Assembly (NCBI RefSeq): GCF_003991155.1
Contig: NZ_CP031293.1
Source of the DNA: Escherichia coli
Lineage (GTDB): Bacteria; Pseudomonadota; Gammaproteobacteria; Enterobacterales; Enterobacteriaceae
DNA length: 64,000 bases
Strand: one strand, 5' to 3'
Shown piece after piece: positions 18,001 through 21,000 of the stretch (within the stretch, counting starts at the first letter, position 1; every line of letters starts with the position of its first letter). The position numbers are program-made.

Positions 18001-21000
18001 AGCAACCAGCTGCCCCAGATCGCCTGCGAAACGTTCAATTTTCGCGCGAGCGTAGACGGCGTTGAAACCAAGACCAAAGCTCCATGCATTATTTAAGCGA
18101 TACGCACCGCTTAAGTTCAGGTTCATGGTTTCAAGGTCGGTTGTACCCCCGACAGAGCCGCCTGCATAAGTATCGTTAAACTCTGTTGCCAGGCCATAGT
18201 TAGAGGTAATAGAAGCGCCCCAACCAAATTGGTCGTTAATCGGTGCAACAAAGTGCATGTTCGGAACCCATGCCGTAGGCGCGATGTTATCGGCTTTCAG
18301 GCTACGGCCAGATGGAGACGTTCCGCTGATATTTACATCCGGATCAATATAAACCGCACCCGCAGAAAATGTCGGGCGGTCAAACATGGTAATCAATGCT
18401 GGGTTACGGCTAACGTTACCTGCATCATCGGCAATTGCGCCTTCCCCTGAATAAGCCCGGCCCAGGCCAGAGGAAGAAAATTCGTTTAACTGAAAGCCTG
18501 CCGACCAGGCCTGGGTGGAGATAAGTGCCACTGCGACTGCGAGAGCAGACTTTGTAAACAGGGTTTTCTGGCTCATGACCATAACCTCAATGATTTATTT
18601 TTATACAAACTATGTTACGTGCTGTAACAGGAGCGCGAAGTGTAGGGTCTGAGGTACATCTTAGAAATCAGACCAGTGGCGAGAGTATAGGTCGGACCAG
18701 CTGGAATGTTGCAAGTATGTTTCTATCTTTTTTCAAATATGATCTAAGAAACGCGATCCAGCTGGCAAAATTTGGAGGTGGCGCACTCATGGATTCGGGT
18801 GAATTTTGTTTTAGATCATTTTTAAGTGTGATTTCGGTCACTTATCCGATTTTGCAGAATTAACAACTGGAGCAGCACTTTCCGGAAGCGTAAAATATCC
18901 ACAACGTTTATCTGGCACCTTGGGTGCACATACAGAGGAAATCAACGATGAGTAAATGTAGTGCTGATGAAACCCCGGTTTGCTGCTGTATGGATGTTGG
19001 CACCATTATGGACAACTCCGACTGCACCGCGTCTTATAGCCGCGTGTTTGCAAACCGCGCAGAAGCAGAACAAACGCTGGCGGCGCTGACTGAAAAAGCC
19101 CGTAGCGTGGAATCCGAACCGTGCAAAATCACCCCGACTTTCACTGAAGAGTCTGACGGTGTACGCCTGGATATCGATTTCACTTTTGCCTGCGAAGCTG
19201 AAATGTTGATCTTCCAGCTGGGTCTGCGTTAATTCCTCTCGGGTATATACGCCCCTGTCAGTTCCTGGCGGGGGCGTTTTATTTTCTCTTCTACTTTTCT
19301 CTCTGTGTCATAGCTCCCACTTTCCCTTTTCTCCACTTGGCTAAATGTAAAAAAATGGTTAAGACTATGATCAGGTCAGACCACTTTATTTATTATTTTA
19401 CAGGGGAGTGTTATGGGTCAGGTTTTACCGCTGGTTACCCGCCAGGGCGATCGTATCGCCATTGTTAGCGGCTTACGTACGCCTTTTGCCCGTCAGGCGA
19501 CGGCTTTTCATGGCATTCCCGCTGTTGATTTGGGGAAGATGGTCGTAGGCGAATTGCTGGCACGCAGCGAGATCCCCGCCGAAGTGATTGAACAACTGGT
19601 TTTTGGTCAGGTCGTTCAGATGCCGGAAGCCCCCAACATTGCGCGTGAAATTGTTCTTGGCACCGGAATGAATGTCCATACCGATGCTTACAGCGTCAGC
19701 CGCGCTTGCGCTACCAGTTTCCAGGCGATTGCAAACGTCGCAGAAAGTCTGATGGCGGGAACTATTCGAGCGGGGATTGCCGGTGGGGCCGATTCTTCTT
19801 CCGTATTGCCCATTGGCGTCAGTAAAAAACTGGCGCGCGTGCTGGTTGATGTCAACAAGGCTCGAACCATGAGCCAGCGCCTGAAACTCTTCTCTCGCCT
19901 GCGTTTACGCGACTTAATGCCCGTACCGCCTGCGGTAGCAGAGTATTCTACCGGCTTGCGGATGGGGGACACCGCCGAACAAATGGCGAAAACCTACGGT
20001 ATTACTCGCGAACAGCAAGATGCACTGGCGCACCGTTCGCATCAGCGTGCCGCTCAGGCGTGGTCAGACGGTAAACTCAAAGAAGAGGTGATGACTGCCT
20101 TTATCCCTCCTTATAAACAACCGCTTGTCGAAGACAACAATATTCGCGGTAATTCCTCTCTTGCTGATTACGCAAAGCTGCGTCCGGCGTTTGATCGTAA
20201 ACACGGGACGGTAACGGCGGCGAACAGTACACCACTGACCGATGGCGCAGCGGCGGTGATCCTGATGACTGAATCCCGGGCGAAAGAATTAGGGCTGGTA
20301 CCGCTGGGGTATCTGCGCAGCTACGCATTTACTGCGATAGATGTCTGGCAGGACATGTTGCTCGGCCCGGCCTGGTCAACGCCGCTGGCGCTGGAACGTG
20401 CCGGTTTGACAATGAGCGATCTGACATTGATCGATATGCACGAAGCCTTTGCAGCTCAGACACTGGCGAATATTCAGTTGCTGGGTAGCGAACGTTTTGC
20501 TCGCGACGTACTGGGGCGTGCACATGCCACTGGCGAAGTGGACGAGAGCAAATTTAACGTGCTTGGCGGTTCGATTGCTTATGGGCATCCCTTCGCAGCG
20601 ACCGGCGCGCGGATGATTACCCAGACATTGCATGAACTTCGCCGTCGCGGCGGTGGATTTGGTTTAGTGACCGCCTGTGCTGCGGGTGGACTTGGCGCAG
20701 CAATGGTTGTGGAGGCGGAATAATGGAAATGGCATCAGCGTTTACTCTTAATGTTCGTCTGGACAACATTGCTATCATCACCATCGACGTACCGGGTGAG
20801 AAAATGAATACCCTGAAGGCGGAGTTTGCCTCGCAGGTGCGCGCCATTATTAAGCAACTCCGTGAAAACAAAGAGTTGCGTGGCGTGGTGTTTGTCTCCG
20901 CGAAACCAGACAACTTCATTGCTGGCGCAGACATCAACATGATCGGCAACTGCAAAACGGCGCAAGAAGCGGAAGTACTGGCGCGGCAGGGGCAACAGTT

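Follow-up and report, generated by a model that had tools for sequence, protein, structure and literature searches.

Coordinates, register and locus architecture of the FadR operators at the fadL and fadIJ promoters in an Escherichia coli chromosome

FadR is a GntR-family regulator responsive to long-chain acyl-CoA, and its sites at fadL and fadI are among the oldest characterised operators of Escherichia coli lipid metabolism. Both fadL and the fadIJ operon are listed as directly repressed by FadR through sites that overlap their transcription start sites (PMC9329746), and FadR-dependent repression and fatty-acid induction of the two have been described in vivo (PMC3460868, PMC9329746). The closest described systems are those of K-12, namely the paired fadL operators OL1 and OL2 (DiRusso et al. 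1993; PMC3460868) and the fadIJ (yfcYX) site (Campbell, Morgan-Kiss & Cronan 2003, cited in PMC9329746). The fadBA operator, ATCTGGTACGACCAGAT, has the regulator, the 17-bp layout and promoter occlusion in common with the fadL and fadI sites, but it is a near-perfect palindrome, stands as a single site and reportedly confers stronger repression than is seen at fadL. The FadR sites of fabA and fabB are recognized by the same protein and belong to the same motif family; unlike the repressing fad operators, they lie upstream of the -35 element and are activating, and their core reads CTGATCGGACTTG, as against CTGGTCNGACC in the fad operators.

Here, the FadR operators of fadL and fadIJ are placed on a 64,000-nt stretch of E. 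coli chromosome (contig NZ_CP031293.1, assembly GCF_003991155.1), referred to throughout as the window. Three 17-bp pseudo-palindromes within it are very probably the FadR operators of fadL (two sites) and of fadIJ (one site). The presence of FadR operators at both promoters had been put forward in the original prediction, and it is supported here by position weight matrix (PWM) ranks, by exact matches to published binding probes and by conservation across species. These are textbook operators that were already known and are unchanged in the present strain, and their discovery value is small; what is gained is a precise set of coordinates, the correct register of each site and a corrected locus architecture. 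FadR binding, release by acyl-CoA and repression in vivo are taken from the literature, and sequence identity, probe coincidence, PWM ranks and conservation come from the present analysis.

In the orientation of the window, mlaA (plus strand) and a yfdF allele (minus strand) precede fadL, which occupies 17236-18576 on the minus strand (446 codons from the K-12 start; from the list of open reading frames and from RefSeq, which annotates it in identical strains and in K-12). Across a 371-nt spacer lies the divergently oriented yfcZ (18948-19232, plus strand), annotated in RefSeq as a 94-codon member of the YfcZ/YiiS family, followed by a strong intrinsic terminator on the plus strand (19249-19277) with a 13-pair stem, nine G-C pairs and a T-run. 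The regulated fadIJ operon then begins with fadI (19413-20723, plus strand) and continues with fadJ (20723-22867, plus strand), both from the open reading frames and the RefSeq annotation, with sixA located after fadJ. The fadI promoter thus sits past the yfcZ terminator, in a 180-nt spacer of its own. The original prediction had spoken of divergent fadL and fadIJ promoters; its operators are indeed present in both promoters, but because yfcZ and an intrinsic terminator lie between them, fadL is divergent from yfcZ and not from fadIJ, and there is no single divergent region. The 753 nt (18660-19412) to which the operators had been assigned consist mostly of the yfcZ gene and its terminator rather than of operators. 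An Rfam scan of 18300-19700 returned a sub-threshold Spot_42 RNA over the yfcZ terminator as its sole match; this scored 19.9 bits (E = 0.58), where the gathering score is 80, and was discarded as chance.

The locus is close to that of K-12 and widespread in the species. The 1.5 kb surrounding the operators are 100% identical to several non-K-12 isolates of clinical and environmental origin, and 5,425 of the 5,426 complete E. coli genomes contain this region. All three operators are identical to those of K-12, where the fadL pair maps to 2461180-2461220 and the fadI site to 2460496-2460512 (K-12 position = 2479882 - p, p being the window position). For fadL, the sequence, spacing and flanks of OL1 and OL2 agree base for base, only the host strain being different, and the stretch 18540-19036, which includes the whole fadL-yfcZ spacer, contains zero differences from K-12. 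For fadIJ, the 17-mer, the core promoter and their position are the same as at the K-12 site, the difference being seven SNPs in the 180-nt yfcZ-fadI spacer, which affect the terminator region and the 5' leader and none of which falls in the operator or in the putative -35 or -10. A 65-nt block containing both fadL operators is found exactly in 4,781 of 5,425 E. coli genomes, and a 61-nt fadI promoter block in 5,000 of 5,309. The fadR gene itself lies outside the window; of the 5,426 complete E. coli genomes, 5,422 carry it, a species-wide count that is indirect for the present strain.

A FadR operator was defined as a 17-bp pseudo-palindrome fitting aaCTGGTCnGACC(T/A)Gtt, a pattern that is found at fadL site 1 and at the fadI site. 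Sequences were also compared with the consensus core CTGGTCNGACCWG, derived from the 17-bp consensus in PMC9329746 and searched with at most one mismatch, and with a PWM for which four FadR sites from beyond the window were used (that of fadBA, two of fadD and that of fabA), whose sequences were taken from the probe tables in PMC3460868 and PMC4259882.

The fadL operator site 1 is AGCTGGTCCGACCTATA on the fadL strand (18686-18702, minus strand), an assignment that draws on the exact string, the PWM, a published electrophoretic mobility shift assay (EMSA) probe and conservation. The first string quoted in the original prediction, TATAGGTCGGACCAGCT, has its single occurrence at exactly these positions and inside the range given for it. 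The site differs from the consensus at one of the 12 specified core bases, and the EMSA probe fadL-FadR-site1 (PMC3460868) is an exact match to window positions 18678-18712. Site 2, CACTGGTCTGATTTCTA on the fadL strand (18662-18678, minus strand) and tagaaatcagaccagtg on the strand of the window, is separated from site 1 by 7 bp, which gives 24 bp from start to start. The probe fadL-FadR-site2 from the same study matches 18651-18685 exactly; the comparison with mapped K-12 footprints that had been suggested as a check on the original prediction consequently comes out in its favor, with the fadL FadR probes published in PMC3460868 and PMC4259882 coinciding exactly with both fadL sites.

Both fadL sites can be placed with respect to the promoter. 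A CRP site, TGTGATTTCGGTCACT (18827-18842, strand-neutral), is located in the fadL-yfcZ spacer with nine of ten core matches and a conservation of 0.883, and the probe fadL-CRP-site1, which bound cAMP-CRP (PMC3460868), corresponds exactly to 18813-18857. Since the published CRP site is centred 157 bp upstream of the fadL start (PMC3460868) and the centre of the present one, 18834.5, lies 157.5 nt upstream of 18677, we infer +1 of fadL to be at 18677 on the minus strand, to within 1 nt. Relative to this start, site 1 would extend from -25 to -9 and overlap the -10 hexamer, and site 2 from -1 to +16. This placement agrees with the DiRusso footprints of 1993, which are said to cover -25 to -8 and -1 to +16 of fadL. 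The -10 hexamer read from the sequence is TATACT (18684-18689, minus strand; conservation 0.978), which would occupy -12 to -7 and the first four bases of which are the last four of site 1. A 19-nt spacer separates it from a -35-like TTGCAA (18709-18714, minus strand), tentatively assigned as the -35 hexamer, with a conservation of 0.942 over 18708-18715. The TTGCAA region is also that of a published ArcA site 5 bp from FadR site 1 (PMC3460868).

The fadI operator is ATCAGGTCAGACCACTT (19370-19386, plus strand), identified by consensus, PWM, conservation and identity with K-12. It differs from the consensus at one of the 12 specified core bases and lies 27 to 43 nt before the fadI ATG. The second string of the original prediction, GATCAGGTCAGACCACT, likewise occurs once and falls within the range given, but its register (19369-19385) was off, as the 17-mer begins 1 nt further to the right. 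A putative core promoter for fadI (19337-19366, plus strand) consists of a -35 TTGGCT (19337-19342) and a -10 AAGACT (19361-19366) with an 18-nt spacer, and the conservation of the two hexamers is 0.872 and 0.889, respectively. As read from these two elements and their spacing, the sequence suggests a start near 19373, which would put the operator at about -3 to +14. That FadR binds here across the start can be deduced from this position together with the review, which lists fadIJ as directly repressed with the FadR site overlapping the start site (PMC9329746, citing Campbell et al. 2003). A full-text literature search for the fadI operator string gave no match, and a literature search for FadR ChIP or DAP data at fadI gave nothing usable. 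Both promoters show the arrangement expected of a repressor, with operators overlapping the -10 or the start, given a start placed from the CRP site at fadL and the predicted start at fadI.

The fadIJ promoter is also reported to have a CRP site (PMC9329746). The best CRP-like sequence in the yfcZ-fadI spacer, TGTGTCATAGCTCCCA (19304-19319, strand-neutral), has eight of ten core matches and a partial conservation of 0.771, and it appears to be the site in question. Its centre would be 61.5 nt upstream of the predicted fadI start, a distance that would correspond to canonical class I geometry. A simple sigma-70 scan called neither the fadL nor the fadI promoter and called two unrelated ones instead, and it was set aside as uninformative for weak, activator-dependent promoters.

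Conservation was assessed in two ways. Species-representative genomes were scanned with a conserved fadI peptide, rather than the operator, as the anchor, which yielded 120 fadI loci from Enterobacterales, Vibrionales, Alteromonadales and Aeromonadales. Of these, 103 (counted as species) had sufficient upstream DNA, and for each of them the highest-scoring PWM match in the 250 nt before fadI was recorded. The core GGTCNGACC is present upstream of fadI in 91 of these 103 gammaproteobacterial species, starting 26 to 81 nt before the ATG in 85 of the 91, and the best PWM scores in coding pieces of equal size are clearly lower. For fadL, site 2 is found in all 42 Enterobacterales loci, typically as CACTGGTCTGATTTGTC, and site 1, with the core GGTCNGACCTATA conserved in this order, in most of the 42; wherever site 1 was recovered, it lies upstream of site 2 by exactly 24 nt. 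An alignment of 30 sequences from the fadL ATG to the fadI ATG additionally shows that the fadI operator ranks first in conservation among the 164 17-mers of the yfcZ-fadI spacer (0.949 against a mean of 0.616), in the register 19370-19386. In the fadL-yfcZ spacer, the top conserved block is site 2 (0.925 against a mean of 0.731); site 1 reaches an identity of 0.843, its core being invariant and its outer and central positions variable. Some of this conservation could stem from elements of the core promoter or of the start site with which the operators overlap.

It could be argued on this basis that the conserved blocks are core promoter or start elements, or sites for another GntR-family protein such as PdhR, with FadR secondary or absent, particularly at fadI. 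The operators do overlap the -10 and +1 regions, which would be conserved anyway; in genomic SELEX, PdhR gave a peak at fadI, and its signals at fadL were weak; and agreement with the PdhR box is 10 of 14 positions at both fadL site 1 and the fadI operator, the best match in the spacer of each. However, the conserved unit is the palindrome GGTCNGACC with FadR-type flanks, which does not have the shape of a -10 or -35 element, and it stays constant among taxa in which the distance to the ATG varies. The PdhR box, AATTGGTnnnACCAATT, which belongs to a regulator of the same FadR subfamily of GntR proteins, has the GGT-N3-ACC core in common with the fad operators and differs from them in the flanks: PdhR sites follow TTGGT-NNN-ACCAA, whereas the GGTC-N-GACC spacing with its inner C/G is FadR-specific. 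FadR-dependent induction of fadIJ has moreover been reported (PMC9329746). We consequently regard this explanation as very unlikely and retain the assignment of the conserved palindromes to FadR.

A further alternative would be that only site 1 works at fadL and that site 2 is a non-functional half-site. The original prediction had come near to this when it described a second half-site-like sequence, which indeed exists and corresponds to 18662-18678. The left half of site 2 is good and its right half is degenerate, reading TGATTTC instead of GACCTG; three of the 12 core bases are mismatched; its PWM score takes rank 22 in the window where 22 are expected by chance, which is the chance level by sequence alone; and the repression of fadL is modest despite two sites (PMC9329746, PMC3460868). 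Against this, EMSA has shown FadR to bind site 2 with an affinity equivalent to that for site 1, on a probe identical to the window (Feng & Cronan 2012, PMC3460868), and oleoyl-CoA abolishes FadR binding at the fadL sites; the EMSA results are further said by the same paper to agree with earlier DNase I footprints. No other block of its spacer is as well conserved as site 2, which recurs at every one of the 42 loci examined and, in distant genera, outscores site 1, with PWM scores of up to 16.2. A dead site 2 is thus very unlikely. Site 2 is established by conservation and published experiments, for which its sequence on its own would have been insufficient, and it is a full, footprinted operator rather than a half-site. 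That conservation in this region should be highest at so weak-looking a site illustrates how PWM scores taken alone can under-call real operators.

Within the window, the consensus core with at most one mismatch is matched only by fadL site 1 and the fadI site, where 0.27 matches are expected, and two or more matches are reached in 6 of 100 shuffles. In the PWM scan, which the original prediction had named as a means of verification, rank 1 of 63,984 positions is taken by the FadR site of fabB (39896-39912), rank 2 by fadL site 1 and rank 3 by the fadI site, an outcome in favor of that prediction. Three positions score at least 12.9 where 0.65 would be expected, and three or more occur in 1% of simulated windows. 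Since the maximum expected in a random 64-kb sequence, 13.1 +/- 1.2, is close to what the two fad sites score (12.9-13.5), the PWM match alone is only modestly significant. The argument from the PWM is nevertheless strong through the location of the matches rather than through their scores, the top three positions all being within promoters of fatty-acid genes. The notion that the matches resemble a short, degenerate consensus by chance and have no regulatory role could draw on these near-random scores, on the chance-level rank of fadL site 2 and on the 85 places in the window that fit the consensus when three mismatches are allowed (59 expected), but it is effectively refuted by conservation (recurrence in 91 of 103 species upstream of fadI and at 42 of 42 fadL loci, at sites where the conservation of the respective spacer peaks) and by published EMSA in which probes of the exact window sequence bind FadR (PMC3460868), with the location of the top three matches also counting against it.

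When the three operators are placed into the context of their promoters, a steric mode of repression can be proposed. At fadL, two FadR dimers would sit side by side, 24 bp from centre to centre, and cover the promoter from its spacer up to and including the start, such that sites 1 and 2 together would occlude the region needed by RNA polymerase. At fadIJ, a single dimer would lie across the start site, at about -3 to +14 relative to the predicted start. In both cases, apo-FadR would repress by sitting on the -10 and +1 region, and it is released by long-chain acyl-CoA, which FadD forms from fatty acid taken up by the cell. Control by carbon and oxygen is contributed by CRP and ArcA (PMC9329746, PMC3460868).

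The resemblance to the PdhR box may also have a meaning alongside FadR binding. It could be speculated, although we consider it doubtful, that the fadI operator and fadL site 1 double as PdhR boxes. For the PdhR peak at fadI, the genomic-SELEX study proposed a box with 7 of 14 matches inside the fadI coding region (window 19417-19433), and the 10 of 14 matches of the fadI operator are better than this. The ligand of PdhR is pyruvate, as against acyl-CoA for FadR. If the two proteins do recognize the same sequences, a pyruvate sensor and an acyl-CoA sensor would compete for or share one DNA element, and such a shared element would explain the PdhR signals reported at several fad promoters.

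Ten of the 14 positions of the PdhR box AATTGGTnnnACCAATT are matched by the FadR operators of fadI (19370-19386, plus strand) and of fadL site 1 (18686-18702, minus strand). A PdhR genomic-SELEX peak at fadI has previously been assigned to a proposed site within fadI codons 2 to 7 (PMC7660256), which corresponds to 19417-19433 of the window and matches the box at 7 of 14 positions, a poorer fit than that of the FadR operators. On the basis of this resemblance, the FadR operators may also be recognized by PdhR.

The CRP site at 18827-18842, validated for fadL, precedes the transcription start of that gene by 157.5 nt, a distance that is atypically far by the authors' own account (PMC3460868). 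A highly conserved TAAAAT in front of yfcZ, at 18891-18896 (identity of 0.983 in the 30-sequence alignment from the fadL ATG to the fadI ATG), points to a start only about 70 nt downstream of the same site, and this geometry would suit CRP activation of yfcZ.

Further downstream, the yfcZ-fadI spacer differs from K-12 at seven positions, six of which are grouped in and around the yfcZ terminator (19246-19293). At one of these, position 19270, a G replaces the K-12 A; a T-A pair of the stem becomes T-G, and pairing is thereby kept. On the other side of yfcZ, the fadL 5' leader of about 101 nt (18577-18660, minus strand) is conserved across Enterobacterales nearly to the level of coding sequence; fadL mRNA is listed in a review as a pairing target of the sRNA RybB (PMC9329746).

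The original prediction described the fadL and fadIJ promoters as divergent. In Photorhabdus, Providencia, Moellerella, and several further Enterobacterales (L004, L005, L053, L086, L095, and others among the species-representative loci gathered with a conserved fadI peptide), fadL lies next to fadI in divergent orientation, with no yfcZ match between the two genes at those loci, and it is there that this description may be literally true. The locus that holds fadI in Vibrio species also carries a distant homologue of fadL (about 33% identity).

Between fadL and mlaA, the yfdF allele of this strain (15622-16869, minus strand) encodes a product of 415 amino acids, compared with 352 in K-12, at about 80% identity. 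It carries an internal duplication of about 65 residues, with residues ~76 to 120 repeated from ~144 on.

The window also contains the fabB promoter (39896-39930; fabB ATG at 39980). Its FadR activator site, GGCTGATCGGACTTGTT (39896-39912), has the best score in the window with the FadR matrix and is followed by a palindrome, GCGTACAAGTGTACGC (39915-39930), which resembles the FabR site. A published fabB EMSA probe agrees with the FadR 17-mer and the palindrome, with differences of a few bases in the flanks (PMC4259882).
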